Positions 6,012 to 57,200 of a stretch of 64,000 nucleotides of DNA are shown here, one piece after another. The position numbers were made by a program, and so were the translations under genes. This DNA is from Escherichia phage EK8. The stretch lies in the sequence record PQ805430.1, one strand, 5' to 3'. The notes under the pieces were generated by a model. It searched no databases and was not told where the DNA came from. It saw only the letters and a program-made list of their open reading frames with translations. How positions within the stretch are numbered: position 1 is the stretch's first letter; the number at the start of each line of letters is the position of its first letter.

Positions 6012-6069
6012 ACCTACTCCAGGGTTAAAGATAGATGCTAAGAATTTTACATATATTTTGAGATAATAC

Positions 6070-6417
6070 CTAACCCTTACTGACGTTATGCTTGTTAGCT
6101 AACGCATTACGTAAACCTTTACTCATCTTAGCGTCATCATGGCCTTTAAATTCAAGATCCATAAAGATAAGATTAAAGCCTTTAACATTTACCTTAAGTT
6201 CACGTAAGTAGATGGGGCTATCTAAGGTTTCTTGATAAAAAGTTAAATCCTGATCATCCAGCTCTAACTTACCCATTACATACTTATCGTAGCCTTCTGC
6301 TATTTTCTGCTTATTGTAGGTAGGCGGGCTGATAGAAACTTGATCTCCTTCATCGCCATTATCACAAAAGAATCTGGCAGTAAGGAAAACACTAAGTTTA
6401 ATTTTTACTTCTGCCAT
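6070..6417 (-). CDS. hypothetical protein
   Basis: start moved to internal ATG 6417 to avoid 95-nt overlap with upstream gene. Confidence 0.4.
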   Translation of the reverse strand: MAEVKIKLSVFLTARFFCDNGDEGDQVSISPPTYNKQKIAEGYDKYVMGKLELDDQDLTFYQETLDSPIYLRELKVNVKGFNLIFMDLEFKGHDDAKMSKGLRNALANKHNVSKG

Positions 6418-6424
6418 ACTGATC

Positions 6425-7270: not shown

Positions 7271-9982
7271 TTATGCTCCTGTCCACGTACCGTGGGCATC
7301 AACGTATTTAACCCAATCCTTCGGCTTCCACTTTGACGTGTCTTCCGCTGGTTTAGGGCATTTATAGGCTCCGGCCTCCGCCCACTTGATTTTGCGACGG
7401 TAGAGCATTTCAGCAGCTACAGCGTCACGGATCTCCTGCTCACTCAGGTTGTTGTCCAGCGTGATAGGCGTAGCCCAGTTCGGCCAATAGAGGTCGAGGT
7501 TGGCGGGCAACGGTACACGAGGGTCAGCAATCTCAGGCAGACCTTTCCAGGCCATTTCTTCGATCAGATGATCATTGGCGAATTTAACCGCTGTAATGTC
7601 TCTGCGAATAAGCAGGTAGATAGCATCGTGGATGAGTGCTACGGGGAGAATGTCATTACGGAAGGGACTTGCCCACACCTTCTGCATAAAAGCGTTTACA
7701 GCTCGGTTGGTGAGCAATCCGTATGACTGACCACTCACTGCGTTGCCGAGGCTCCGGCCTTCGGCCTCTGCCTCGCGCATCGTGCGTGAGCTTCCCATGA
7801 CGGAACGTTTGAGTAATGGTGTACGGATACGGAGGCCAAAGGCTCCGGTGCCATAACCATCCTCGGTTGCTTTCTGGATCTTGCCCTGTACCCACTTGCC
7901 CGATACTTCGTAGAGCTTGTGGAAGTTTTCTTCGATCCGCTGAGCTTCTTCTTTCGAGAAGCCGCAGTTCTTGACCAGGGTAAGCCAGGTGCCCAGATAT
8001 TGCAGAGCAAACGACACGGGCTTGGACTGACCACGCTCAGCTTTAAACTCTTCCTGGATTCGGTTAATCCCCTCAACGGTGTTCGGCAGGTGAGCAAATT
8101 TCTCCGGCCAGTATGCGTAGGTACGCATGGAGTGAGGGTCATACCCGTCCGTAAAGACTTTAATCTTGTTCGGATCCTGGGTGAGCAGAGCATTGATACG
8201 GTCTTCCAGAGCATTGAAGTCAGCCCCGGCAAAGATCCATCCATCGGGTGCCGAGAAGATGTATTTAATCAGCTTACCGAATGTAGAACCGGATGGGAGG
8301 TTTTGCAGGTTAGGATCTGACGAACTCAACCGCCCGGACAACGTACCGCCGAGGTTAAAGCAACCATGCAGATACCAGCGACCGTTACCTTTGTCGAAGC
8401 CAGCTTCAAACGCCGGAATGAACGACGACAAGATTTTGGAAACCTTGTTGTAGTCGATCAGTGCCCGCAGTAGAGCTTTGGCCTCTTCCGTCTTAGCATG
8501 GAACTCCAGCTTATCGATGGTGTCCGATGCAGCCGATGGCTGTTTGGTTTTGGTACGCTCAATCACCGGTAGCTGCATCACATCGTAAAGAAGGATGGCT
8601 ACCTGTTGATTACTGCCTGGGTTGAATTGAATGTGGCTAAAGTGCTCCAGCGGGTGCTGTTTCGTCTTGAGCTTGGCATTCGCAGCAACCATAGTGTTGG
8701 TCTGAATGATCTTCTCAGCCTGCTTCACGAAGCGGGTGCCACGCATTAACTGAATAGCGGCATTGAGGCCAGCCTCCAGCTTCTGTCTGGCTTCCTTGAT
8801 CTTCTCCGGTATCATTGGCATACCGGTAAGTTCGATTTGCAGGATGGTTTTCAACGACGGCAGGAATTGCTCTTTGTACAGCTTAAGCTGCCCATCCCGT
8901 ACCATGATCGGATAATACTTCTCCTTCACGTACATCGTTGACATGGTGTCAATGACGTTGTACTGGAGCAGTTCCGGCAACGGGATCGCCATGATGTTGT
9001 TGATATCGTCTTTGGCCCAGTTCCCGGCGAACTCGTGAGCCAGGGTTTTCAAGCCCAGTTCATTACCCGCAGTGGAGTTGGTAGCCAGATACGCGATGAG
9101 CTTGGTATCGTCGATGTTCTTGGTTAGGACTTCCAGACCTTCCAACAACCCGGCATTATCCAGAGGATCTGCCATATACAGGTTGTAGATGAGCACCTTG
9201 ATATCGTACCCGCCGTGGTGATAAACAACCTTACCGTTGTACGCTTCGAAGAACTTTTTCAGCTTATGGCGGAAGTAAGGATCGAAGATCCTGACGTTCT
9301 CTCCATTCTGCTGTATCAGGTCACAACGCATCCCGATACCACCAGTGGTATCTTTACTGAATGAGATCGTGCCGATACCGGCTTTAAACGGGTGCAGACT
9401 GAAAGTCTCAAGGTCAACTGCGACCTCATCCCACTTCATGATTTCGGCAAATGCCTTATCAATCTCACTGTCCGTTATCGGATAGTAAGCCCATTTCAGA
9501 ATGTCGTTACCCAGTGCCTCATACGTCCCTTTGAGGCTGGAAGCCAGGGTCTTAATGGATAAGTCCAGCTTTTCAGACACTGCCGGGTTATACGTCAGAG
9601 CCTGATAGTTGATGCCCAGGGTTACCTGGATATCTTCGTAGCCGGGGATTGCACACGGGAGCATGTAGCCTAATTGAGCCTCAGCCTTCGTATTCTTGGT
9701 CAAGACCTTGAAGTAGTTGGAGTCGGCACAATACACATGCTTGGTTTGCAGTTTCTTTAATGCTGGGAGTAGCTGTTCGAGGTACTTCTTGATATGCCCG
9801 ACAGGTGCTTTGTTATTGGGCTGATAGTCCAGCGTGAATACCACTAAATTCTCAGCTTTATAACCACTATCTTCCAGGGGATCAACATAGAAACGTTTTA
9901 TCTCAGATGGCTGCAATGCTGCCTCTTTGATAAGGATCGCCGTTTCATACGTTGGCCTGGTGGCATAAATGATGTGTCTCAT
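7271..9982 (-). CDS. DNA polymerase, family A, with 3'-5' exonuclease domain
   Basis: Exo motif VAVDLETFSL; pol motif A DFNALEDR; motif B RGQSKPVSFALQYLG; motif C LIHDAIYLL. Confidence 0.9.
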   Translation of the reverse strand: MRHIIYATRPTYETAILIKEAALQPSEIKRFYVDPLEDSGYKAENLVVFTLDYQPNNKAPVGHIKKYLEQLLPALKKLQTKHVYCADSNYFKVLTKNTKAEAQLGYMLPCAIPGYEDIQVTLGINYQALTYNPAVSEKLDLSIKTLASSLKGTYEALGNDILKWAYYPITDSEIDKAFAEIMKWDEVAVDLETFSLHPFKAGIGTISFSKDTTGGIGMRCDLIQQNGENVRIFDPYFRHKLKKFFEAYNGKVVYHHGGYDIKVLIYNLYMADPLDNAGLLEGLEVLTKNIDDTKLIAYLATNSTAGNELGLKTLAHEFAGNWAKDDINNIMAIPLPELLQYNVIDTMSTMYVKEKYYPIMVRDGQLKLYKEQFLPSLKTILQIELTGMPMIPEKIKEARQKLEAGLNAAIQLMRGTRFVKQAEKIIQTNTMVAANAKLKTKQHPLEHFSHIQFNPGSNQQVAILLYDVMQLPVIERTKTKQPSAASDTIDKLEFHAKTEEAKALLRALIDYNKVSKILSSFIPAFEAGFDKGNGRWYLHGCFNLGGTLSGRLSSSDPNLQNLPSGSTFGKLIKYIFSAPDGWIFAGADFNALEDRINALLTQDPNKIKVFTDGYDPHSMRTYAYWPEKFAHLPNTVEGINRIQEEFKAERGQSKPVSFALQYLGTWLTLVKNCGFSKEEAQRIEENFHKLYEVSGKWVQGKIQKATEDGYGTGAFGLRIRTPLLKRSVMGSSRTMREAEAEGRSLGNAVSGQSYGLLTNRAVNAFMQKVWASPFRNDILPVALIHDAIYLLIRRDITAVKFANDHLIEEMAWKGLPEIADPRVPLPANLDLYWPNWATPITLDNNLSEQEIRDAVAAEMLYRRKIKWAEAGAYKCPKPAEDTSKWKPKDWVKYVDAHGTWTGA

Positions 9983-20320: not shown

Positions 20321-21088
20321 CTATACCTGTAAGAAGTAACGGTGAATGAGTTGATTCACAACACGGACGCCAATAGCATTCGTCTTGTAGACCATTTTAA
20401 GTTGGGCCTGCACTTCGTTGATGACCTTCTTCTTGTACTGGCTTAAGTTCTTGCCAGTACCGAACGCCTTAATGTACTCGTCCAGTAAACGAGACTCCGG
20501 CACCAGGTCGAGAAGGGATTGCAGGGACGGTCGGATGGTACTGAAATGCAGTGCCACACGTCCTAAAAATTCTGTACGCACACCCAGTTCACGCATACGG
20601 TCGTGGGTGAGGTTAGCTTCGCCATTGAAAGCACCAGCGAACACGAATAATACGTGCTCAACGGAGACTTTCTCGTACTTGCCATAGTCACCAAAGACAC
20701 TGGCGGTACTGCTTTCCAGCATGGTGAGGAACTCGTTCTGGACACCGGCCAGAGCTTCGTGAGTCTCACCGCCTACGCCATTGGTAAACAGCTTATCGAA
20801 CTCGTCTACGAAGATTACGATGCCGTTTACCCCGACCATTCCCCGGAGGGGAGCCAGGGCTTTGGATAACGAGTTACCCGATACACCTTCTTTGGTTAAA
20901 CCAGCAGCGTTGACTTCCAGCATCTGAATTTCACGCTCTTTGGCGAGAGTCGAGATCAGGTGAGATTTACCAGATCCTGATTCACCCGACAGGATGAAGT
21001 GAGGGCGGATCGCACCTTTAGATTTAGTGTAAGCATCAAAGACGCGGCCTAATACGCCCGCAACTTCTTCTTGTTCTGGGAGAATCAT
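20321..21088 (-). CDS. P-loop ATPase (AAA-like)
   Basis: Walker A SGESGSGKSHL; Walker B IVIFVDEFDKL. Confidence 0.65.
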   Translation of the reverse strand: MILPEQEEVAGVLGRVFDAYTKSKGAIRPHFILSGESGSGKSHLISTLAKEREIQMLEVNAAGLTKEGVSGNSLSKALAPLRGMVGVNGIVIFVDEFDKLFTNGVGGETHEALAGVQNEFLTMLESSTASVFGDYGKYEKVSVEHVLFVFAGAFNGEANLTHDRMRELGVRTEFLGRVALHFSTIRPSLQSLLDLVPESRLLDEYIKAFGTGKNLSQYKKKVINEVQAQLKMVYKTNAIGVRVVNQLIHRYFLQV

Positions 21089-22654: not shown

Positions 22655-22711
22655 TCCTGACTGTCTTACTCCCGAAGTGGGGAGATCGACTCATTGAGTG
22701 CCCGGAGGGCA

Positions 22712-22969
22712 CTACTCTTCGGGTTCAGCAATTTCCACTGAGAAGCCCTGCTGGGCTAACAGTGTGGCTACTTCACCGGTTTCGAGATAACGGGTAGGCT
22801 CGCAGTTCATGGTACGGCCTGCGGGCAGGTAGATGGTTTTGCCCACTTCTTTGATGAGGGTGTTGTGATACATCATCACCAGAGAGTGAACAGTGTTCTC
22901 ATCGTAGGGATACAGATGAGCTTTGATTTCGCTCAGGGCTTCGTCCAGGTTATTCGCTGTCCTGAACAT
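22712..22969 (-). CDS. hypothetical protein
   Basis: start placed at internal ATG to limit overlap; track ORF extends to 23026. Confidence 0.4.
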   Translation of the reverse strand: MFRTANNLDEALSEIKAHLYPYDENTVHSLVMMYHNTLIKEVGKTIYLPAGRTMNCEPTRYLETGEVATLLAQQGFSVEIAEPEE

Positions 22970-23543
22970 CGGCACCGGAGCCAGAGGGATCTTTGAAAGC
23001 ATTTGCATATACCTTAGCTGCAACACGACGCATTAAGGCAATGGCCTGTTCCTGCGTCATATCTTCCAGTTGTGAGTCGATATCCAGAGCACGTTCAAGC
23101 TGCTCAGGGGCGTAGATTTCTTTGTCGTGGAGAATGTCCAGCATTGCATGGCCAGACTTCTTCACATACTGGCTTAGGTAGCCCCAGAAAGCCGGTGTAG
23201 GCTGTCCTGACGGCGTAAAGAAGCCAGACAATACACGAGCTTCCAGACCAGCATAATCCGCATCGGATAATGTTTTATGGGCTTTAGCCAGTTGACAATT
23301 AGATTCTTTAAACAGGTCTTCTTGCAGACGTAAACCCATCTCCAGGGGAGTTTCCTGTTTACGTTTAGGGGCTAATAATTCATCGTACAGTTTGTCAATA
23401 GAAGTCTGGCCTTCATATGCCATCTGAACTTTGACAGCACGTACTGTAGCGACACGGAGGCCATACATGTTGGCTACCTGATACTCGCTGTACTGCAACA
23501 AAGCACGGCGAACCTTGTTTTCCATATCTTTGGTAAGTTGCAT
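22950..23543 (-). CDS. hypothetical protein, possible HTH DNA-binding regulator
   Basis: first gene after a 516-nt noncoding region; N-terminal ALLQYSEYQVANMYGLRVATVRA is helix-turn-helix-like. Confidence 0.45.
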   Translation of the reverse strand: MQLTKDMENKVRRALLQYSEYQVANMYGLRVATVRAVKVQMAYEGQTSIDKLYDELLAPKRKQETPLEMGLRLQEDLFKESNCQLAKAHKTLSDADYAGLEARVLSGFFTPSGQPTPAFWGYLSQYVKKSGHAMLDILHDKEIYAPEQLERALDIDSQLEDMTQEQAIALMRRVAAKVYANAFKDPSGSGADVQDSE

Positions 23544-23695
23544 TTTAATCTCCAGGGTTAAATTTAAGCCTATAGATAACCTGATTTGGTATATAGGATC
23601 GTTTAGTCAGACTGTCTCAAATGACTGTCTTCAACATATAGGTTTAAAACTTACGACACATACTATGTAAGGTCTAAAACTGTATGCTCAAAACT

Positions 23696-23720
23696 AAAAA
23701 CCCCTCACAAGGAGGGGTTT
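23696..23720 (-). terminator. hairpin terminator, potentially bidirectional
   Basis: AAAAA-CCCCTC-ACAAG-GAGGGG-TTT. Confidence 0.5.
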
Positions 23721-23964
23721 CTATTGCCATGTTTATCGTTGATTACAGGATCTGGAATCCTGCGCGTCTCAACCCTAGTGGGTCAGTCGCCGATTTCACT
23801 TTTACGACCAGAGGATCGTCTGTATGAACTACATCTGATACATGGCGGTACAGATGCAGCAACGATAAGATAAACCAGATTAGCATCAGGTATCCTCATC
23901 GTAAGGTGAATCACACTATGTAATTCACATTGGATTATATAACCATAATACAATGTAAACTAAG

Positions 23965-23995
23965 AAAAAGTAGGACACCCTAAGATGGGGTGTCC
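23965..23995 (-). terminator. rho-independent terminator (minus strand)
   Basis: 8-bp stem GGACACCC/GGGTGTCC, A-run on plus side. Confidence 0.55.
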
Positions 23996-24059
23996 TTTCA
24001 GAAAGTAAAAACTAAGTTATGCAGACGCAGAGCGTCATTCATTAAACGCACGGAGTGCG

Positions 24060-24305
24060 TCATTTAAGTTTAAAACGGAGCTTCTGGGTTCCACCCTGTT
24101 CATCGAATACGGACTGCACTTCCACTACACCCTCGTGATCCAGTACCAGTACCTTGTCAGCTTTATTGGTGAACTCACCCTCGATTTCAATGACCTTCAA
24201 GCCTAACAGCTTCTTGGTTTTGAACTCGTTCAGCTTATCTTCGGTGGTATAGATGACTCTGGTTTGTTGTGTAATATGTTGATAACCGCGAAATGGGTCG
24301 GCCAT
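24060..24305 (-). CDS. hypothetical protein
   Basis: 81-aa ORF. Confidence 0.5.
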   Translation of the reverse strand: MADPFRGYQHITQQTRVIYTTEDKLNEFKTKKLLGLKVIEIEGEFTNKADKVLVLDHEGVVEVQSVFDEQGGTQKLRFKLK

Positions 24306-24997: not shown

Positions 24998-25195
24998 TTA
25001 TTTCGGATACTTCGGGTCATTTTCTTTAAGCCAGATAACATGGCGATTGAAGGTATTAACCAGACGGTTGTATTCACCACCTGTGGCGACATTAATCATA
25101 TCAATGCCACATTCGAAGCTGCATGTTAGATTAGCAATCTGGATACTGGTCTTTCTGGCTTGTCGCTTATGCCACCAGATTTTAAGAAAGAGCAT
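24998..25195 (-). CDS. hypothetical small protein
   Basis: 65 aa from internal ATG 25195, 11 nt after RNAP II large subunit stop. Confidence 0.4.
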   Translation of the reverse strand: MLFLKIWWHKRQARKTSIQIANLTCSFECGIDMINVATGGEYNRLVNTFNRHVIWLKENDPKYPK

Positions 25196-26456
25196 AGTTT
25201 GAGTTCCTGATCTTATCGCCCAGGTCGTTGCTGAGCTTCTCGTAGACACCATCGGTGGTCTGATATAACTGGTTCATGAGCATAGCCAGCATGTCGCTAT
25301 CAGCGAAGTCAGCCATGATCTCTTTGTACCAGTAACGGGTGATATCGCAGTTGTTTGCATGGCAACCAAACGCATCATGCACCGTGATAATCGGGAACGG
25401 TTTGTACGTCAGCATGTCATCAGTGATAGACAGCAGCTTGGTAACAATCCACTCCGGCAGGCACATAACGTTGCTCCAGGTCAGCAGTGGCAGGATGGAC
25501 AGGTCAGCGATGTGAGCCTTTTCCATCAAAGCCAGAGCTTCAACCAGTTCAGCATGTACAGGCAGACGGTTAGCACCGTTGGCATACATGATTTGAGCAT
25601 TGGCCAGCATCTCATTCGCAGGGTGAACGATAGCCGGATCGTAGTTACAGCGACGTTCCATCCCACGCAGGAGATAGGCGTCACAACCGTGAATGGTATT
25701 GGCAACGTTGGCACGGCCACGCTCAGTACCTTCGTTCACCTTGTATTGCAGCGTGAACGTAGCGTGGTCGAGTTCGTCTACTTCAATCCTGGTTTCCTTC
25801 GACTCCATGACTTTCATCACGGCTACGAAGCCATCCGGGAACACCAGAGTGTGATCCAGTGCGAACGGACGCCAGGACTCCAGCAGTTCATCCATTAACT
25901 GGAATGCACCCGGAGCGATGATCATCGCAGCGTTGTAGAACACGTCCAGCATTTCACCTTCACCGAATACACGCTTTGGTACGGCCTTAGAGCCATAGCC
26001 AGAGGTCATCACGGCTTGTTTCACGTCCTTACGTGGAACAGTGATGGTAGCGTGACCGGTTTCCAGCAGGAGTTTATTCATCTCTGCTGTGGTGTTGCTG
26101 TACGCATCCATACGGGAGCGAGGGTCAATCATGCCAGTGTTGTAGGCACCAGAGATGCAGCCCGTGAGGGCTGACATAATCTGGATACCAGAGCAGCAGG
26201 CATCGAAGTGAACGATATGCCCAACAGGGATACCACGGCGAGCACGGTCAATGACCATTGCAGCCTTACGGAACAGGGCAGGTTCTTCTGCCTGATCCGC
26301 GATAGCTTCGAGGTTGTTGATGTTGTTCTGGATGAACTCGATACGAGTATCGAACAGTTCTTTATCCATACCAAAGTGGTTGGCAGCATCTATACAGAGG
26401 TATTCCCAGCCAGTGAACGTCTGGAACCCGGAACCGAAATTGATAGTCTTTTGCAT
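25182..26456 (-). CDS. phage RNA polymerase II, catalytic C-terminal subunit (T7-like single-subunit RNAP, split)
   Basis: motif A FDACCSGIQIMSAL; motif B RKDVKQAVMTSGYGSK; motif C VHDAFGC, all T7 RNAP-like. Confidence 0.85.
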   Translation of the reverse strand: MQKTINFGSGFQTFTGWEYLCIDAANHFGMDKELFDTRIEFIQNNINNLEAIADQAEEPALFRKAAMVIDRARRGIPVGHIVHFDACCSGIQIMSALTGCISGAYNTGMIDPRSRMDAYSNTTAEMNKLLLETGHATITVPRKDVKQAVMTSGYGSKAVPKRVFGEGEMLDVFYNAAMIIAPGAFQLMDELLESWRPFALDHTLVFPDGFVAVMKVMESKETRIEVDELDHATFTLQYKVNEGTERGRANVANTIHGCDAYLLRGMERRCNYDPAIVHPANEMLANAQIMYANGANRLPVHAELVEALALMEKAHIADLSILPLLTWSNVMCLPEWIVTKLLSITDDMLTYKPFPIITVHDAFGCHANNCDITRYWYKEIMADFADSDMLAMLMNQLYQTTDGVYEKLSNDLGDKIRNSNYALS

Positions 26457-26466
26457 AAGTTAATCC

Positions 26467-27468
26467 TCATTTTCTGAATTTATCAGGTACACCAATTACC
26501 GGCTCTTGATCGGCCAGGTTAATCATTGCTTTTTTGAAGCTGGTGCCCTGTGGGGTGATATGGTAGCCACAAGCGTACATGCGCCCGCGTTTGTCTACCT
26601 TGTTGCTGATATAGAACCGGTTACCCTGGTTCACCATCAGGCTGTAGAAGTAGTAGGACTGCTCCTTATAGGATGCCCAGTTCTCCTTCTGTTTGCGGAT
26701 CATATCCGCTATCTGCCAGTCACTGAGATCCTCATCAGACTCAATGCTATCCAGATCGTGAGTTGGTTCTTCCTCCACTGAGCATAGGAACTCAACGTCC
26801 AGGGACAGAGGAACACGATTGCGTGAATTAAGTACATCAAGGCAGATGTTTCCGTCATGATGGTTGAACCCTCCACCCAGAATGAGGCTATCGCTCTTGT
26901 GGGTATAGTAGGCAGTTGAACGGTTATTCGTGAGCTTACGAGGCTCACAAACCAGTGGTGGTAAATAGCATGAATATTCAATGAAGTTGCTTAATTCTTC
27001 ACTGAACTGAATGTTACTGATTATCTGGATTGGGCTGTTACGGTGATGCTTGTTCAGGTCGAACACGTCGGTTGTAGCGAGTACAGCCAGCACCTCAGCG
27101 ATGGTCTGCACGCTATCACGTTTGTCATCGAAGCCCAGACGGGAAGCCAGTTGACCGATGGCATTGACCAGAGGCGTTTCAGCCTGGAAGTAGGTCACAC
27201 CAACGAAGATCTCTTTGACGAGATTCTCCAGGTCAAGCTGGGCTAAGTGATGCAGCCGGACAGCTTTGCTGTCGTAATACTGCTCACTCATCCACTGCTT
27301 CAATAACTCAACGCCCTGCTCCACTTCTGGCAGCAGGTTCTCGGTGCCCTCAAATAACTCCTTACGGATGTATCCGTCGATATGACGGCGATTGAACTGA
27401 CGTTCGTTTACGAGTTGTAACTCTTTTGGTGGCAACCACTTATGTTCCATAATTCCCTCTAATCTCAA
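26467..27468 (-). CDS. phage RNA polymerase II, N-terminal subunit (T7-like RNAP, split)
   Basis: DKRGRMYACGY matches T7 RNAP DWRGRVYA region; directly upstream of catalytic subunit with 10-nt gap. Confidence 0.8.
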   Translation of the reverse strand: MRLEGIMEHKWLPPKELQLVNERQFNRRHIDGYIRKELFEGTENLLPEVEQGVELLKQWMSEQYYDSKAVRLHHLAQLDLENLVKEIFVGVTYFQAETPLVNAIGQLASRLGFDDKRDSVQTIAEVLAVLATTDVFDLNKHHRNSPIQIISNIQFSEELSNFIEYSCYLPPLVCEPRKLTNNRSTAYYTHKSDSLILGGGFNHHDGNICLDVLNSRNRVPLSLDVEFLCSVEEEPTHDLDSIESDEDLSDWQIADMIRKQKENWASYKEQSYYFYSLMVNQGNRFYISNKVDKRGRMYACGYHITPQGTSFKKAMINLADQEPVIGVPDKFRK

Positions 27469-27864: not shown

Positions 27865-27879
27865 GAGGCGCTATGCGCC
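27865..27879 (-). promoter_or_regulatory. candidate hairpin promoter (GC stem, TAT loop)
   Basis: AGGCGC-TAT-GCGCCT, ~65 nt upstream of 27801 start. Confidence 0.3.
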
Positions 27880-27881
27880 TT

Positions 27882-28230: not shown

Positions 28231-28245
28231 ACGCGCTATGCGCGT
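28231..28245 (-). promoter_or_regulatory. candidate hairpin promoter (GC stem, TAT loop)
   Basis: ACGCGC-TAT-GCGCGT, ~70 nt upstream of 28163 start. Confidence 0.3.
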
Positions 28246-31570: not shown

Positions 31571-31590
31571 AAATATGGCCGGAGGCCATA

Positions 31591-32443: not shown

Positions 32444-32456
32444 CTCGCTATGCGAG
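32444..32456 (-). promoter_or_regulatory. candidate hairpin promoter (GC stem, TAT loop)
   Basis: CTCGC-TAT-GCGAG in intergenic gap, ~35-60 nt upstream of next gene start. Confidence 0.3.
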
Positions 32457-33026: not shown

Positions 33027-33122
33027 AGTATGTCTCCAATAAGTTAAGTGTATTACTTCACTTAAAGTGCTATGCACTACTACCGGTCGTAACACTACGG
33101 TACTACGTACCTACGTGTTACT

Positions 33123-33174: not shown

Positions 33175-33202
33175 TTACATCCCTAGTTATGTATACACAT
33201 AC

Positions 33203-33384
33203 TAATAGTAAGGTTATTAGATATAAGGTAGATATGAGTTATAGATATAGGATAGGTATAGGTATAGAGATAGTAGTTGATAGGGTATAGGTAGAGATAA
33301 GTGATATAGATATAGATAAAGTAGTAGTAAGAGTAAGTAGTAACAAAGTAGTAAGTAAGTAGAGATAGTAGTAACAGGTAGATA
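33203..33384. repeat. strand-asymmetric low-complexity tract almost devoid of C on the plus strand
   Basis: ~180 nt of GTA/TAG/GATA-type units with only two C residues by manual count. Confidence 0.6.
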
Positions 33385-33461
33385 CTAAACATAAGTAAGT
33401 AGTGTTTTACTCAGTAAATACATCCTAATCTCTGTCAACCTTTTCCACTAATATAAATTTC

Positions 33462-33476
33462 CGATAAGGGTTATCG
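33462..33476 (-). promoter_or_regulatory. hairpin with 3-nt purine loop (candidate promoter/regulatory element)
   Basis: CGATAA-GGG-TTATCG upstream of leftward early unit. Confidence 0.25.
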
Positions 33477-33610
33477 ATAAAAGTGGTATAGGAAACTTAC
33501 TGTATGATTTCTGACCGTCATACCTAGCGCGAGTAAAAGCTGTAAAGTTTTGGTAACTTATAGCGCGCCTTACTGTCTCAGTGGTGAGTTGTGTAATGTG
33601 TAATTGTGTA

Positions 33611-34418: not shown

Positions 34419-34506
34419 AAAATTTTCCTCATAAAATTTTTAAAAATTGCCCAACCTTTCGACCCTATTTATACTCTGGCTTAGAACCTATAGGGAGACT
34501 ATATCA

Positions 34507-39198: not shown

Positions 39199-39274
39199 TG
39201 GATGGGGTATCTGGATTCGAACCAGAGAATGCCGATATCAAAGACCGGTGCCGTAACCACTTGGCTATACCCCA
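39199..39274 (-). tRNA. tRNA-Gln (anticodon UUG)
   Basis: hand-folded cloverleaf: acceptor TGGGGTA/TACCCCA, anticodon loop CTTTGAT, T-arm CTGGTTCGAATCCAG, encoded CCA; close to E. coli tRNA-Gln as recalled. Confidence 0.8.
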
Positions 39275-39279
39275 GAAGG

Positions 39280-39355
39280 TGGCGATGGGATGGAGATTCG
39301 AACTCCAATGTCGCGGATTAACAGTCCGGTGCTTTACCGAGTTAGCTATCCCATC
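39280..39355 (-). tRNA. tRNA-Asn (anticodon GUU)
   Basis: hand-folded: acceptor GATGGGA/TCCCATC, anticodon loop CTGTTAA, T-arm TGGAGTTCGAATCTCCA, discriminator G and encoded CCA; 5-nt spacer to tRNA-Gln. Confidence 0.8.
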
Positions 39356-51225: not shown

Positions 51226-54200
51226 ATGGCAGACTCTCTGTTGTCCCAGGCTCTTAATGCTTTAAGCAACGGCGAGTTCACCAATCCTACCGAAGCTGTT
51301 TCCGTTCCGCAGGCTGCTCCCCAGCAGCCTGTCTCCAAAGATTCTCAAGTCCTTGACGCCACCCAACGTATTAATACTGGCTTTGCTGCTAAGGGCATCT
51401 ATCCGTCTATCTCTGGTGAAATCGAACGTTTAAATCAGCAAAAAGCAGGACGTGAACAAGTCGTTCAAGCATACGAAGAAGATATGCAACGTCTGGTTCC
51501 AACCAACGCTTTAGAGTCTGGTTCCCCGGTAATTCGCACCGGTGCCCAGATTACCAACGCAATGGCTGGTTTCGGCAGTTCAATTGCACGTATCGCTCTC
51601 CAGGTGAAAAACCTTAACAATCTCGGTGCTGTAGCTGCCGGGATGGACGGTGCCACCGATGAAGAAAAACTCGCCTTTAACCGTGAAGCCACTCAACGTG
51701 GTGCTGAGGCTGCTGCACTGGTAGGCAATAATGCCCGTCGTGTTCAGGATATCCTCGGCGGTGTTCCGGGTGCGTCTGCTAAGGCGATTGCCGAAGCATC
51801 TGAAATCCCGAATCAGCTTAAGGCTTACCCTTCTGATACCAACCTGCTTGACCGTGAGATTCCTCGTGGTGCAGCAAAAATTCCTTCTGCAACTCAGGAC
51901 GATTCTCTTCTGGGTTCGGTAGGTCAATACTTCAATAACCTGAATGATCGACTTGTCGGATCGGTAAATGGCATGACTGGTGAAGACCAGACCGGCCAGA
52001 CTGAATCTGTACGTGACCGACTGCAACGTGCTCAGACTGCCCTTACCCAAACTCAGAAATCCCTGGGTAACACTGCACAAGGCGTCGATAACGAATGGGG
52101 AACGGACTCCTGGGTTAACCGTGAACAAACTCAACGTATGGCTCAGCAACTGGAAGAAGAGAATAAAGATCTCTCCATCCCTGGTGCTATTGCTAACACT
52201 GTTGGGGAATATCTGGCTAACCCTTCACTGGTTATCCAATCTGCCGCAGAGTCCTTACCTTACGCACTTGGTCGTGTCGGTATCATTGCCGGTACTACCG
52301 GTCAGGCGGTACAAAACCAGACTGATGGTTACCGTGGTCAGGCAGATGGACAGCTTCCTACTGATGAGCAAATCAGTGATGTAACCCGACTCAATGCGTT
52401 GCATTCTGGTTTGAACTTTGTGGAGAACGTAGTCAATGCACGCGCTCTTACCGGTCTTAGCAATGCTGCTATCACTGCTCCACTTCGCCGTGGTGGTGAA
52501 GCACTGGCTGATACTGCCCTCGGACGAGCGATTACCAACGCTGTCGCTCGGAATGGCGTATCTCGTGCTGCTCTGGCAGCAGGGCGAGCAATTACTCCCG
52601 AACCTGTTAGGGAACTTGGCCTGACTATGGCCATTAACGGTCTGACCGAAGCTGCACAAAATCAGATCGAAACTCGCAACCTGCTCGGTGATGATCGCTG
52701 GGATACCGAAGGCAACATCAATGCTGGTGTGCTTGGTGCCCTGTCTGCTGGTGTAATGACTGGCCCATCTACTCTGGCGGCTGGTGCCGGTGCCGTAGGT
52801 GAGCGTATTGCCCGTGCTGCTCAGGAACGTCGTGACGCTGCTAACCCACAAGCTGCCGAAGCTCGTCGTGCTGCACAAGACGCTGCTAAGCCGTTTGAAG
52901 ATCTGACCAACCCGGAACATGCGGATTACAACCCGCAGGCTGCTATTCGCCAACAGACCAACGTGTTTGCTGATGAATCAACTACTCCTGAAGTACGTCA
53001 GGCTGCTATCGACCGTGCTCAGTCCGTCCGTGATTCTGCCGAACAGAACCTGGCTTCGGTTACTGATGAAGTACGCCAAATCCAGAAAGATATGGCTACC
53101 CGTCAGGAAATCGAACGTCGTCTGGAAGATATCCAGACCAACCCGGATTCTGAGTACAAAGGTAGCGAAGCTCAACTGACCACTATCCGTGACCAGATTG
53201 ATGAGCGTATGCCGGATGAAGCTGCTCAACAGGATCTGGTTTCCCGCTTCCAGGCTGCAAACGAAAACGTTGAACGTGTGCGTAGTGCCTACGATCAGTT
53301 TGAGAATGCTGCTGGTCTGCGTGAACGTCAGGCTCCAGAAGAAGCTCAGGCTCAGATGGATACTGCTACCAATCCTGATGCAACTCAGGAACAGGTTGAT
53401 ACGGCTGCTGACCATGTGGTTACGCACCCTATGCAGTACACCCCGGAACAACTCCGTACTCTGGCCGATGATACGACCAACCGTTTCAGCGACACTCAGC
53501 GTGAAGCGATTCGTAAACTGGCTGATGCCCGTGTTGCCCAGAACAACCTGAAAGATGATCTGCGTGTAAACCAGGATATTATGCAGGGTGGTAAGGGCTA
53601 CCGTTCCCTGGGTGAATACACCTCTGCTTATGCTGCTGCTATCCGTTCCGGTGATAAGACTATGGCTACCAACCTGCGTGAGCAGTTAGGTCGCTTCCAG
53701 GCTTCTCATGAACAGAAAGCTGCCGTTGCTCAGCAAATGATGGACTCTGGTAACTACGGCCAGCTTATCCGTCAGAACAGTCAGTGGGTGGCTAACGAAG
53801 GTAAGAAACTTCGTGGTAAAGATAAGACCCGTAACGGTGCTCTGGATATTCATTCTGGCTCCGGTCGTCTGGTTGCTCGTCTTCAAGAAGAAGCCGAAGC
53901 AATCCGTGCAACTTCCGCTGCCCTGGATGCAATGTCTCAGGCTCGTCCGGCTGCTCCCGCTACCGCTCCGCAGCCGTCCTCCCCTGCACCAGCGAACGAC
54001 GCAACCACAACGGTGGAGGCGAAGCCGGAACCGGCAGTGGTGGAGTCGGAAGCGACTGTTACCAAATCATCCCTCTCTCACTATGCCAATGACGGCGTAC
54101 TGACTCAGGATGCTGATGGTGATATGGCTCTGCGTCTGGATCAGTTCTCTCCGGCTGAACAACAGTTCCTGCGTGACAACAATATGGTTGATGCTCAGAA

Positions 54201-57200
54201 CATGGTTAAAGCTGCTTTCTTACGCCGTGCTGAACCGCGTAAAGATGACGCCCATAAACCACGTACTCTGAACCAGCAAGACCGCATTGCCCCGGCAGAA
54301 CAACAGACTCAGCAAGAGCAGGTACAGGCTCAGGATACCAATGAGAATGACCCTACTCCGGCCAGCACTGTAGAAACCGACACCAACGTAACTACCGATC
54401 AGACTACGGCAACGAAGACTGACGAGAACACGAAGGCAGACGGTGCTACCCGTGTCCTACGTCCAGAAGGTAAATCTCTGGAGACTGCCCGTACCGAAGA
54501 ACGAGCTAAGCCATTCTCAGAACAGAACCTTGTTCTCACTGGTTTCGTTCAGCGTGTCCGTGAAGGTTTCGTTAACCCACTGGTTACCGTTGAAAACTTC
54601 ATGTCCAGCGTTATGGATAAAGCTGACTGGTCTGGTCGCTTCACCGAAGTGAACCGTTACCTTGCTCAGCCGATGAACGCTGCCCAGAAGAATCTGGTCG
54701 GTATGTTCACCAAATTCCATAAAGCAGTGGAAGGTGATATCGATCCTGCTATTAAACAGAAGATCGGTAAAACCCGTGGTGGTCTGGATCGCTCTGCTTA
54801 TAACTACCAGGATTTTGTCCAGTTTCTTACCACTGACGGTAAACTGGATGAAAACACGAAGACGGCCCTGACCGCCTCTATGTTCACCTGGCTTGCAGAG
54901 AACGGTAACAAGCTCATCGCCACTCGTGACGATATGGCTGGCCTGTTCCATATGGATAAAGGTGAAGTACCGGTAGAGATCCATAATCGCTTCTCTGAGA
55001 TCGGTTCTTCTCAGCGTGCTGTTATCCAGTCCCTTGGCCAACGTGCTTACCAGATGCTGGGCTTCAAGGTACTGAAAGACGTTGACCCTAACCGTGCTGG
55101 ACGTATGCAGCAAGCTCTCGGCATGTACGCAATGCACGTTATGATGAAACGTGGCTACCTGGAGCAGACAACTATGACTGCTCGTGAGTACGCCGACGTT
55201 ATCACTACTGGTTTGGATCCTGAAGCTGCTCAGGCTAAACGTGCAGAGTTTGCTCGTGACTTCCTGAATGGTGAGTCCATCGATAAAGCGAAAGAGACAT
55301 TCAACTTTGTTCGTGTACCACGTAAAGAAGTAAACGGTAAACTCGTACCGGCAGATAACATTGCCCGTATCGTTGAAGCCAACAAAGGGACTTCCGGGGT
55401 TATGAGCAAGCTGTTTAGCTTTGACTCATCCCAGACTTTCCCGTTGACTAAGAAGCCAGGTAAATTCATTCAGAATACCGTAGGTGACTTTGGTCAGCAG
55501 GTTCCTTCTGAATTGGCAGAACGTCTGACTAAAGCCCAGCAACAACCGTACCGGATCAATGAGTCCCTGGTTAACGCCATGAACACGATCCGCAATGTGG
55601 ATGAAGCTGCATTGCTGCACATGATGGGTGTTCGTACTGAGACAGAAACTCCGTTCATGCACGCTCGTGACCGTATCGGGCAGCAGGCCAAAAACGACGA
55701 TATCATTCGTGCTCTGGCTAATGCTGATGAGGTAATGGGTACTCTGGATTCCATCGACCAGCAGATCTATATGCCGCTGGCAGTATGGAGTAACAACCGT
55801 GTCGGCGTAGCGTCCAACATGCTCAACCCGCAGGGGAACAAAGTTCACCGTGCAATGGTAGGCATGGAAGCACACCGTGTTGATATCCCGGTAAACCAGG
55901 CACCAATCGACGCCAACGGTAACATCACTGAGTACGGCCAGTTCTTACTGACTGTGGCTCAGGGTATGGAAGAGGCGCCGATCAAGAAACCAGGCACTAC
56001 TGATAAGATGCCTACGGTTGATAAAGTGACTGGTGGTACTTATCTGCAAGGTATGCAGGAATACCTGAAAAGTGACAGCGTTCGTGCTGGCATTAAAGCC
56101 ATGCAGAATATCGTTGAGGGTAACTCCACTCCGCGTGATATCGAAACCGTTAAGCAAACCGTTGCCGAATTTGGCATGGGGCCACACTCCTTCCAGTCAC
56201 TCCATGCACTGGCTCTGGTTAACCAGGCTCGTGAACAGGGTGCTGAAAAAGTGCAGGTTGCTATCGGTGGCGAATCAGATGGTGTCACCAACGGGCCGAT
56301 CCTTACCAATGTGCTCTATGGTACGGCAGACACTGACCTTCTCGCTCGTGGTGGCCTTTACACTGCTGACGCTGGTGTTACCAACGTACCGCAGTACCGC
56401 GAACAAGGTGGGCAGGACTACTACCAGTTATTGGGGACAGCTCAGAAGGAAGCATGGGATGCCATGTATCCTCCGACGACTGGCCGGGTAACGGATCAGA
56501 ACCAGAAGTTCCGTCGTGCAATTGATTACTTATCTCCTGGTTTCGGCTCTCGTTCGAAAGCCAAAGTACAGGCTACCCCATTCAACTACGGTTCCGGTAT
56601 GGACTCGCTCAAGCGAGCAAGTGCCAGAGACACCATTGATAGTGTCTACGGTCATATCACTGATATTGCCGAAGCCTATAGCCGTTCCAAAGTTGAGGGT
56701 GATTTTGCTCGCCATAAACTGGAGAAAGCAATCGAGATCGTACTGGCCCAGGGCAAGACGCTAGGGATTAAAGTTCCCGCATTTTCCGGCCTGGGTAAAA
56801 CGGAATCACTGTTAACCACCGAATTGCCACGTCCAATTGTGGACGCGATTATGCAGATCGATATGGCTATCCGTGGTGAAGCATCCGAGACTGCGATTGA
56901 GCGTGTTGCTGCTCACTACATCAAAACCCGTGACACTAACACTGCGATTACTAATGCAGCGTTTGAAGTGGGCAAAGTTGTACGTGACCGTGCAGAGGCT
57001 CTGGCTCTGGAACAGGCAGTTAAAGACGGGCAAGTAGGTTCCATCAACGATATCGCCGTAGAAGGCTTATCGACTGATGCAAAAGCTAACCTGTCTGAAC
57101 AACTGCGTGAAGCCAGTGCTATCGTCCCTACCGCTACCGGATCCCTTTCCAAAAATAAACTGGAATCAGGTTACGTGGCTGCTAAGGTCGGTACTACCTT

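Follow-up and report, generated by a model that had tools for sequence, protein, structure and literature searches.

A probable composite of hairpin promoter, leaky terminator, small-gene cassette and conserved leader in the gap behind the RNAP II operon of an N4-like Escherichia phage

In a 64,000-nucleotide (nt) stretch of the Escherichia phage EK8 genome (PQ805430.1; hereafter the window), a gap of 516 nt at 23544-24059 separates the TGA stop codon (24062-24060) of an upstream open reading frame (ORF) of 81 amino acids (aa) from the ATG (23543) of an ORF of 197 aa, close to the genes for a T7-like RNA polymerase (RNAP) II. This gap is probably a composite region of transcription punctuation, made of a hairpin promoter, a leaky terminator, a small-gene cassette and a conserved leader. 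From the stop codon on, it contains two hairpins (hp1 and hp2), a spacer, a terminator (T1), the cassette with a terminator of its own (T2) and the AT-rich leader (Table 1). The core module, a hairpin followed by a leaky terminator, belongs to a known kind, and the cassette and the leader are new parts. A first-pass annotation had described the interval as noncoding and AT-rich with three hairpins, and had proposed that it holds the terminator of early transcription together with RNAP II-dependent middle promoters. That interpretation is partly supported: corrections concern the identity of the promoter, its position relative to the terminator, the strength of the terminator and the claim of noncoding DNA.

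The AT-rich gap and its three hairpins are real, and the hairpins fold beyond chance when compared with shuffles, with z-scores from -2.9 to -4.1 across the gap. G+C content is 39.5% in the gap and 32.9% in its leader part, against 48.8% in the window and 48.5% in the leftward block, the long minus-strand run of early and middle genes from about 33100 to 4849, whose direction makes the plus strand the template. The gap is the longest gene-free interval of this block, as had been claimed, if small internal ORFs are disregarded, and not otherwise; the second-longest ORF-poor interval measures 413 nt (6012-6424). Likewise, "noncoding" is only partly right because a 47-aa ORF with a Shine-Dalgarno sequence lies inside; about half of the interval is the small-gene cassette. 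The placement directly behind the RNAP II genes holds only approximately, since five small ORFs (~1.1 kb) intervene between those genes (27468-25182) and the gap. The interval does lie at the end of the RNAP II-containing operon, matching a mapped promoter-terminator module of phage LUZ7 (PE7/T12, see below) and its counterpart in phage LIT1.

The nearest deposited relatives are members of Cbunavirus (Kosakonia Kc283, Pectobacterium CB1, CB3, CB4, Nepra, Possum), and a 74.6-kb public assembly, L020, is a closer relative with a mosaic genome. In Cbunavirus, the gap at the same position is only about 245 nt long, and its order on the coding strand is stop codon, hp1, hp2, TGCATAACTTAGTTTT, T1, an AT-rich leader of ~125 nt and the next gene. 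In the window, all of these parts are present, and an insert of ~270 nt separates T1 from the leader. Identity to Cbunavirus is ~80% in the noncoding parts, with the flanking proteins at 44-65% (upstream) and 50% (downstream). Compared with L020, the gap shows 94% identity, and neither the leader nor the beginning of the insert has any change; of the neighbours, the upstream gene is replaced and the downstream gene falls to 53-77% identity in its first half. By these sequence comparisons, the gap is a conserved island amid mosaic genes.

Table 1. Elements of the gap and related genes in the window, listed along the leftward direction of transcription where they belong to the gap
Feature	Position	Strand	Description and basis
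hp1	24060-24046	-	inverted repeat ACGCAC-TCC-GTGCGT, 6 bp + 3-nt loop; candidate TCC-class DNA-hairpin promoter
Predicted transcription start	24039..24040	-	LUZ7 starts lie on G at +14 of the TCC loop
hp2	24036-24024	-	GACGC-TCT-GCGTC; folds in RNA and DNA models; missed by the first-pass annotation
Spacer	24023-23997	-	TGCATAACTTAGTTTTTACTTTCTGAA, core ACTTARTT; unpaired in minimum-energy fold
T1	23996-23962	-	predicted intrinsic terminator AGGACACCC-CATCTTA-GGGTGTCCT, then AC-TTTTT-C-TT; terminator scan and fold
Region upstream of cassette	23961-23929	-	TTTACA (23959-23954) and TATAAT (23939-23934), 14 nt apart
5' hairpin of cassette RNA	23928-23906	-	10 bp, GTGAATTACA-TAG-TGTGATTCAC; helix 1; minimum-energy fold
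Conserved mRNA architecture	23901-23733	-	internal hairpins over most of the ORF
Small ORF	23886-23743	-	47 aa (MLIWFILSLLHLYRHVSD...), unannotated; Shine-Dalgarno GAGGA 23897-23893
T2	23723-23696	-	predicted intrinsic terminator AAACCCCTCC-TTGT-GAGGGGTTT, then TTAGTTTT; terminator scan and fold
Leader	23695-23544	-	150 nt, 33% G+C, conserved, unstructured; Shine-Dalgarno GGAG 23553-23550
Upstream gene	24060-24305	-	81 aa, phrog_24879; last gene of the RNAP II-containing block
Downstream gene	22950-23543	-	197 aa, phrog_26890, CB4_031 homolog
RNAP II	26467-27468 and 25182-26456	-	T7-like, two subunits
Drc homolog	27801-27502	-	single-stranded-DNA-binding RNAP II cofactor; phrog_6271 alongside LUZ7 gp14
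vRNAP gene	51226-62316	+	3696 aa

The first element, hp1, overlaps the stop codon of the 81-aa ORF by one base and reads ACGCAC-GGA-GTGCGT on the template (plus) strand, where it presents a GGA triloop closed by a C:G pair. Its DNA fold has an energy of -5.8 kcal/mol (z -3.7), equalled in none of 200 shuffles. TCC-loop hairpins whose stem has 6 base pairs (bp) or more occur three times on the minus strand of the window (31590, 24060, 22713) against 0.09 expected, and 0/300 shuffles reach three; no such hairpin is found on the plus strand, where a single 5-bp example lies at 11704. The features of the TCC class are present in hp1: it has the same orientation as the downstream genes, is intergenic and belongs to a set commoner than chance. 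Among relatives, its stem covaries around an invariant TCC loop and C:G closing pair. Stems at this place read CTGGCC in Kc283 and CB1, GTGACC in the Klebsiella phage P184, GCGTTC in LUZ7 and GCGTCT in LIT1, which makes five unrelated stem sequences across these phages. The order of stop codon, hairpin and terminator is also found in LIT1, CB4, CB1, Kc283, Horatius, SABI and the Klebsiella phages P184 and Tribble. TCC hairpins located 0-10 nt after a stop codon are found in the window (24060, 22713), P184 (10893, 11237), Kc283 (7799, 9478), LUZ7 (8238, 9521) and LIT1 (8977, 12014).

The two other strong TCC hairpins of the window, at 31574-31590 and 22697-22713 on the minus strand, have 7-bp stems and TGAGT at the predicted start. 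The former comes after a terminator, and the latter overlaps a TAG stop codon and is followed by a hairpin, CTCCC-CACTT-CGGGAG. A weaker TCC hairpin of 5 bp lies within a gene at 20840-20852 (minus strand).

Start sites and terminators were mapped in LUZ7 by ONT-cappable-seq (PMC9163698; bioRxiv 10.1101/2022.03.18.484859, Tables S2-S5). The LUZ7 genome was scanned for hairpins, and the mapped start coordinates were then checked against its sequence. The start of promoter PE7, at 8259, is the G at +14 of GCGTTC-TCC-GAACGC (8238-8252) (bioRxiv 10.1101/2022.03.18.484859, Table S2), a hairpin which begins 9 nt past the gene for the RNAP II large subunit. Promoters PE8 (9543), PM2 (35273) and PM3 (39375) also consist of TCC hairpins, of 6-7 bp, with the start on the G at +14, and PM4 is a TCC hairpin of 4 bp; enriched, that is primary, 5' ends lie 14 nt downstream of the TCC hairpins (bioRxiv 10.1101/2022.03.18.484859). 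PE7 and PE8 are classed as early and PM2-PM4 as middle, and TTC or TAC loops are seen in the strong early promoters PE1 and PE3-PE5 (bioRxiv 10.1101/2022.03.18.484859). Directly after PE7 comes terminator T12, with its 3' end at 8301 and efficiencies of 0.06, 0.14 and 0.20 in early, middle and late infection, and transcripts from 8259 read through it to orf23-30 (bioRxiv 10.1101/2022.03.18.484859). In LIT1, the RNAP II gene is followed by GCGTCT-TCC-AGACGC and then by a hairpin with a run of seven T.

The hp1-T1 arrangement of the window is like PE7 and T12 in several respects: a 6-bp TCC hairpin with C:G closing lies 0-9 nt after a stop codon, past the operon of a split T7-like RNAP II, a G stands 13-14 nt downstream in T-G-A-G/A-T, and an intrinsic terminator comes 20-45 nt further on, before the next operon. 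The phage of the window also encodes Drc and a heterodimeric RNAP II, as LUZ7 does. In contrast to the window, LUZ7 has no hp2, conserved spacer, cassette or long leader, with only 30 nt to orf23; the stems of the two phages are unrelated in sequence, and the LUZ7 elements were measured whereas those of the window are predicted. Counted from the hp1 loop centre (24053), G 24040 is at +13 and A 24039 at +14, while L020, CB4 and P184 have G at +14; T-G-A-(G/A)-T occupies +12 to +16 in all three TCC hairpins of the window. Because the mapped LUZ7 starts are the G at +14 of TCC loops, transcription from hp1 is predicted to start at G 24040 or A 24039. Comparative evidence thus argues well for a phage-polymerase promoter in the interval, as the first-pass annotation had expected. 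The candidate, however, is the hairpin abutting the stop codon, which had been listed merely as a hairpin, and not AT-rich DNA, and the expected order of a promoter after a terminator is reversed, with hp1 upstream of T1.

Because the second hairpin, hp2, has neither the C-TCC-G core nor a G at +13 or +14, it is taken for a stem-loop at the 5' end of an RNA rather than for another promoter. Probably, it forms the 5' stem-loop of the hp1 transcript, at +5 to +17. Its counterpart in P184, GAGTC-GCTC-GACTC, shows two compensatory pairs. The spacer behind hp2 is kept in Cbunavirus and SABI and partly in P184. By a terminator scan and by folding, both T1 and T2 are canonical predicted intrinsic terminators. 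T1 consists of a stem-loop (23996-23972) of 9 bp, six of them GC, and ACUUUUUCUU (-16.4 kcal/mol, z -3.7); the RNA of ~78 nt from the predicted start to the end of T1 folds with -22.6 kcal/mol (z -4.1). The position of T1 is retained with different stems in CB4, SABI, P184, LUZ7 and LIT1. T1 is the ortholog of a predicted terminator shared by CB1, CB3 and CB4 (Torf1_26, Torf3_29, Torf4_29), located after the homolog of the 81-aa gene; these three phages are without the cassette. The ortholog is predicted in Table S8 of the paper on the CB phages, in which hp1 and hp2 as promoters and the leader are undescribed (PMC6027278). In CB1 (L011) and CB4 (L001), the T1 stems are identical and the loop is reverse-complemented (TAAGATG vs CATCTTA); between these close relatives, the hairpin has flipped.

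The insert of ~270 nt (23961-23696) is absent from Cbunavirus. It begins with a region in which TTTACA and TATAAT hold their positions in P184 and in the genomes L029 and L032; the region may be a promoter, atypical for sigma-70, and a sigma-70 scan called no minus-strand promoter anywhere in the gap. The 5' hairpin that follows is retained in L032 with a different inner stem. The small ORF, its Shine-Dalgarno sequence and its ATG are intact in 9/9 lineages (46-56 aa), although the middle is hypervariable: the insertions and deletions there preserve the frame, the stop is at the same aligned place in 7/9 lineages, and a hydrophobic N-terminus, WFILSLLxLYRxVS, and a basic tail are conserved. 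In lineage BU9, the 5' untranslated region (UTR) is unrelated and homology starts exactly at the Shine-Dalgarno sequence and ATG. T2, whose stem is helix 6 of the cassette RNA and differs in Klebsiella phages, has at least 10 bp followed by UUUUUAGUUUU (-17.0 kcal/mol, z -4.0).

Public assemblies hold an identical protein and one of 77% identity. Homologs are found at the same place in Efbeekayvirus genomes, mostly unannotated, although some Klebsiella phage records annotate the ORF as hypothetical; others follow the major head gene in three Klebsiella phages of 60 kb or come from several metagenome contigs, and none was found in plasmids or representative bacterial genomes. A "virion structural protein" label over the cassette in K17alpha62 is an annotation artefact, the locus being the same as in P184, and hits of the exact pattern in L027, a Clostridium metagenome-assembled genome, and in L037 are chance matches. 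A CsrA identity was rejected: one member gave a weak match (E 0.07), which a search of the family profile against the PDB did not reproduce.

Furthermore, the cassette RNA is heavily structured. Its 257 nt fold with -92.3 kcal/mol, against -61.6 +/- 4.8 in shuffles (z -6.4). When nine lineages were aligned by MAFFT and analysed by RNAalifold, the consensus contained 50 pairs, 19 of them compensatory, with 97% of the cells paired. Shuffled controls gave 9.2 +/- 1.9 compensatory pairs, with 0/500 reaching 19, and slid partners gave 1-7. Besides the internal hairpins, codons 7-9 (23868-23861) form a long-range helix with the stretch of the 3' UTR directly behind the stop (23740-23733), and in an alternative helix 23869-23863 pairs with 23901-23895 beside the Shine-Dalgarno sequence. 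As read from the alignments, the three segments covary, being U/A/U in the window and C/G/C elsewhere, and even BU9 carries GACAAG beside the Shine-Dalgarno sequence despite its unrelated 5' UTR. We read the insert as a translated small gene that would be gated by mRNA structure. More specifically, and only tentatively, it may be a phage-restricted mobile small-protein gene with an mRNA structural switch, in which codons 6-9 pair either near the Shine-Dalgarno sequence or with the 3' UTR; it is possible, if doubtful, that translation of the hydrophobic, basic-tailed peptide of 46-56 aa is allowed in one form of the transcript only, complete or processed.

Such an arrangement resembles the type I toxin mRNAs of the hok/sok kind, which likewise have a small ORF (46-56 aa here) for a product with a hydrophobic N-terminus and a basic tail, a heavily structured mRNA, a long-range helix between the 3' end and the beginning of the coding sequence and an alternative helix over the Shine-Dalgarno region. 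Unlike hok/sok, the cassette is found in lytic phages only and has no relation to that system in sequence or in Rfam, Pfam or NCBIfam. No antisense partner was found by the sigma-70 scan, which calls no promoter on the opposite strand, or by eye, where only TTCACA-N19-TACAAT was seen, pointing away from the ORF. Also, the logic may be inverted, since the Shine-Dalgarno sequence would be released when the segment pairs with the 3' UTR. The cassette would be a case of hok-like fold-back control without an antisense partner, and is not read as a member of the hok family. As a separate observation, the unannotated gap of 322 nt past the RNAP II gene of LIT1 (L038, 8968-9289) holds two TCC hairpins, the one described above and another at 9217-9233, together with the terminator and what may be an ORF of ~50 aa rich in Cys (MSKHRLCKYCGKP...).

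The leader is the most conserved part of the gap and exceeds the flanking genes in conservation. Its motifs are GTTTTAGACC, GTTTTAAACC, CCTTACATAGTATGTG (23672-23657), AGACAGTC, present twice (23630-23623, 23617-23610), and CTATAGGCT (23575-23567); those shared from Cbunavirus to Klebsiella phages include AAGTTTTA-ACCTATATG, AGACAGTC, TTGACTAA and CTATAGGCT. A consensus RNA structure of the leader has 0 pairs, and an Rfam search gave two tRNAs alone at the gathering threshold; with E values up to 5 allowed, 23400-24200 had no meaningful match. The leader is kept before different genes, namely CB4_030 in CB4, the CB4_031 homolog in the window and a diverged version of the latter in L020, and because it does not vary with the following gene, it is not a gene-specific operator.

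One part of the leader recurs elsewhere. A 16-mer, CCTTAC-N-TAGTATGTR (CCTTAC-N(1-4)-TAGTATGTR across genomes), is found exactly twice per genome: at 23657-23672 and 33198-33213 in the window, at 830 and 11380 in CB4 (L014), and at 1299 and 10215 in L020. The copy outside the leader is found near the left end, where it precedes the first early hairpin by 75-135 nt. Beyond the 16-mer, the leader and the left end do not resemble each other significantly (score 32 vs a shuffle mean of 38.7). In the left-end region, the minus strand at 33190-33480, upstream of the first gene, is packed with short degenerate repeats (TACT, CTATA, ACCTATA) and may be a genome-end or entry element. The octamer AGACAGTC occurs five times (23630, 23617, 22666, 19245, 15665; minus strand), always on the coding strand of the leftward block and several times in a 5' UTR near the Shine-Dalgarno sequence, and it is also present in the leaders of SABI and Tribble. 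On the plus strand, AACCTATAGGGAGAC at 34486-34498 (at about 84 in L020) resembles the core of a T7-class promoter from -5 to +6 (CTATAGGGAGA). This sequence belongs to the divergent region that separates the leftward from the rightward block, not far from where the physical end of the genome is presumed.

As for the polymerase, the window is, by sequence, a Drc-type N4-like phage with Cbunavirus as its nearest relatives. BLASTP of its Drc against LUZ7 Drc gives no match, so that pairwise search alone would miss it; the link came from the PHROG family and from the Kc283 ortholog, annotated as "ssDNA binding RNA polymerase cofactor", with 90% identity. Because of the membership in phrog_6271 and this match, the phage is assigned to the Drc type and not to the N4 gp2 type of schitoviruses. 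Indeed, CB1-like phages were placed among the Drc-type by the paper on Drc (PMC7145618).

The hp1 template hairpin is like the N4 vRNAP promoters P2 and P3 in its stem of 5-7 bp, its 5'-GGA-3' triloop and its C:G closing pair; in the N4 sequence, P2 (557-573) was checked to read AAGAAGC-TCC-GCTTCTT and P3 (4546-4562) AAGCTGC-TCC-GCAGCTT. A G-purine-A triloop closed by C:G is the basis of hairpin extrusion and stability at P2 and P3 (PMC4496689). In contrast, the N4 start lies at TTGG, 11 nt from the centre of the loop, and a G at template -8 is required, whereas the window has A at both -8 and +11 and its first G at +13. The N4 early promoters lie upstream of RNAP II at the left end, whereas hp1 lies ~1.1 kb downstream of RNAP II, and N4 has no such hairpin after gp16.

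Also unlike N4, the window has a separate class of hairpins, GC-ATA-GC, in the true early region. Four of them were found against 0.02 expected, on the minus strand at 33066-33078, 32444-32456, 28231-28245 and 27866-27880, all upstream of RNAP II and the last just before the Drc homolog, as is the tandem PE4/PE5 in LUZ7. Their homologs in CB4 are annotated in GenBank as N4-type early promoters, and in P184 the equivalent family is CC-ACA-GG, of which one hairpin precedes the Drc gene. The GC-ATA-GC hairpins are probably the true early (vRNAP) promoters. TCC hairpins, on the other hand, would be read by RNAP II with Drc, and PE7 and PE8 of LUZ7 would then be RNAP II promoters that are on by 5 min. 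We infer that TCC may mark the RNAP II/Drc class throughout Drc-type schitoviruses, with vRNAP taking other loops: ATA here, TAC or TTC in LUZ7 and ACA in P184.

Taken in order, the gap may work as follows. At hp1, the template strand would extrude the 6-bp GGA hairpin, and a phage single-subunit RNAP would start ~13-14 nt further on, near G 24040. The first nucleotides of this RNA would fold into the hp2 stem-loop. T1, 40 nt further, would end the transcripts of the upstream operon and attenuate those from hp1, with most polymerases probably reading through, if its efficiency is like that of LUZ7 T12; an hp1 transcript ending at T1 would be an RNA of about 78 nt. In the lineage of the window and in Klebsiella Efbeekayviruses, the polymerase would then meet the cassette, with its upstream region, 5' hairpin, Shine-Dalgarno sequence, ORF and T2. 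There, one segment of the RNA, for which both partners are seen in the conserved structure, would gate translation by pairing near the Shine-Dalgarno sequence or with the 3' UTR. Transcripts that read through would cross the leader of ~150 nt before the next gene.

Several observations weigh against this composite reading. Both the start site and the efficiency of termination are taken over from LUZ7, a member of another subfamily, and in the window the G stands at +13 instead of +14. It is odd for a promoter to precede a strong-looking terminator, the more so as T2 also follows in this lineage. Hp1 always touches a stop codon, which would also suit an RNA element of the 3' end. On the polymerase acting at hp1, the LUZ7 classes give mixed indications, with PE7 and PE8 early and PM2-PM4 middle. 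The template base at -8 is A, not the G that N4 vRNAP needs. In N4 vRNAP, residues K114, R119, D901 and R904 read the GGA loop and the -8 G; K114, R119, W129, D901 and R904 correspond to P, K, Y, T and T here, so that only the stacking aromatic residue is kept and those contacting -8 to -11 are not, in an uncertain alignment of low identity. In the cassette, the promoter is ambiguous, the product of the ORF matches no protein family (Pfam, NCBIfam, PHROGs and PDB, and Rfam for the RNA), the ORFs of the window and L020 differ by 11 nonsynonymous and 2 synonymous changes, and a second frame (23783-23953, minus strand) is open for 30-65 codons in most lineages, without an evident start signal. 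The open second frame is probably due to constraints of RNA structure, and a second product is possible.

The missing family match, the prevalence of nonsynonymous changes and the open second frame also speak for the insert being a structured noncoding RNA, with the 47-codon ORF open through structural and compositional constraints. Covariation is very strong, codons 1-17 do not vary between the window and L020 even at synonymous sites, and it is in the later codons that the nonsynonymous changes prevail. This alternative is nevertheless unlikely, because the Shine-Dalgarno sequence and ATG are correctly spaced in all lineages and homology in BU9 begins just there, because the frame, the stop, the N-terminus and the basic tail are conserved as described above despite the indels, and because a structure that targets the Shine-Dalgarno region is sensible only for a translated gene.

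In the model of the first-pass annotation, the interval is purely noncoding, its hairpins end early vRNAP transcription, and AT-rich middle promoters of the N4 type restart it with RNAP II. The AT-rich composition, above all of the leader, and the two good terminators agree with this model, and two terminators in series would suit a restart promoter in the leader; in N4, the RNAP II promoters are a minimal AT-rich element from -7 to +2 (PMC4496689). However, the phage has Drc and not N4 gp2, the mapped middle promoters of LUZ7 are GC-rich hairpins, and half of the interval is the cassette. No AT-rich promoter-like motif of the gap was found to recur upstream of middle genes: GTTTTARACC has 9 hits against 7.2 expected, which is no enrichment, and CTATAGG, ACCTATA and other leader motifs are not enriched either. 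The role as a terminator of early transcription is doubtful because the LUZ7 counterpart of T1 stops only 6-20% of transcripts, and only 6% early in infection. As for an RNAP II-dependent middle promoter, TCC hairpins do occur among the middle promoters of LUZ7, but they occur in its early class too, and the counterpart of hp1 itself is classed as early. Altogether, the model is rather improbable. A helix-turn-helix protein as the product of the next gene was not confirmed either, since the 197-aa protein has no Pfam or PDB match and its single-sequence AlphaFold2 model has a pLDDT, the predicted local distance difference test, of 44.

There is little chance that hp1 and hp2 act as RNA only, as 3'-end stabilisers or processing sites (e.g., for RNase III or E) without initiation. 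Their good folding as RNA and the close distance of TCC hairpins to stop codons in the window, P184, Kc283, LUZ7 and LIT1 would be explained in this way. A stabiliser, though, needs no invariant loop, yet TCC and C:G are fixed across five unrelated stems; moreover, the template triloop is of the GNA type, tied to hairpin extrusion in N4 (PMC4496689), primary 5' ends lie 14 nt downstream in LUZ7, and T-G-A-G/A-T is conserved at the predicted start.

A role of the segment from hp1 to T1 as the gene for a trans-acting small RNA of ~78 nt (24040 to about 23963) is equally improbable, and it would be compatible with the composite reading. The layout is like that of Hfq-type small RNAs, with a 5' stem-loop, an AU-rich single strand and a U-tailed terminator, the fold is significant as given above, the ACTTARTT core of the spacer is kept from Cbunavirus to P184, and LUZ7 makes small RNAs from another intergenic region. 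Against it, there is no Rfam match, LUZ7 and LIT1 are without hp2 and the spacer, LUZ7 transcripts mostly pass T12, and no target was found apart from a 6-bp complementarity to the leader, seen by inspection.

In phage T7, the primary origin of replication consists of the promoters phi1.1A and phi1.1B and an AT-rich region downstream of gene 1. That the gap is an origin of this type, with promoter transcription into AT-rich repeats, is very improbable: the location at 13-15% of the genome after the RNAP II operon (~15% in T7, right after the T7-like RNAP gene), the AT-rich leader with repeated short motifs that is the same whatever gene follows, and the 16-nt motif shared only with the region by the left end are parallels, but here the promoters are of the hairpin type, the AT-rich block is separated from the promoter by one or two terminators and the 270-nt cassette, composition and skew give no signal, left-end similarity beyond the 16-mer is not significant, and no supporting literature on an N4 origin was found.

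A few observations lie outside the gap. Genes for tRNA-Gln and tRNA-Asn are located at 39199-39355 on the minus strand, within the rightward block. The record of Enterobacter phage SonariX (PQ898399.1; 248,734 bp) shares its N4-like hp1-hp2 module and 81-aa gene with the 76-kb phage SABI, and because of its length, a concatenated or chimeric assembly is suggested. A 2026 paper on anti-defence in Migulavirinae, considered in this context, concerns another locus.

Under the composite reading, the gap bears on a long-standing difficulty, as the middle and "delayed-early" promoters of N4-like phages have long been hard to define. The C-TCC-G signature with a start at about +14 and the module of hairpin and leaky terminator after the RNAP II operon are common to at least five lineages, whose hosts are Pseudomonas, Pectobacterium, Kosakonia, Enterobacter and Klebsiella, and promoters should therefore be predictable from sequence in new schitovirus genomes. 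The annotation of the locus is also corrected, with a conserved small gene and a well-supported mRNA structure in a "noncoding" gap, a gene that many deposited Klebsiella phage genomes leave unannotated. Finally, a leader that is more conserved than the neighbouring genes marks a putative function in cis.

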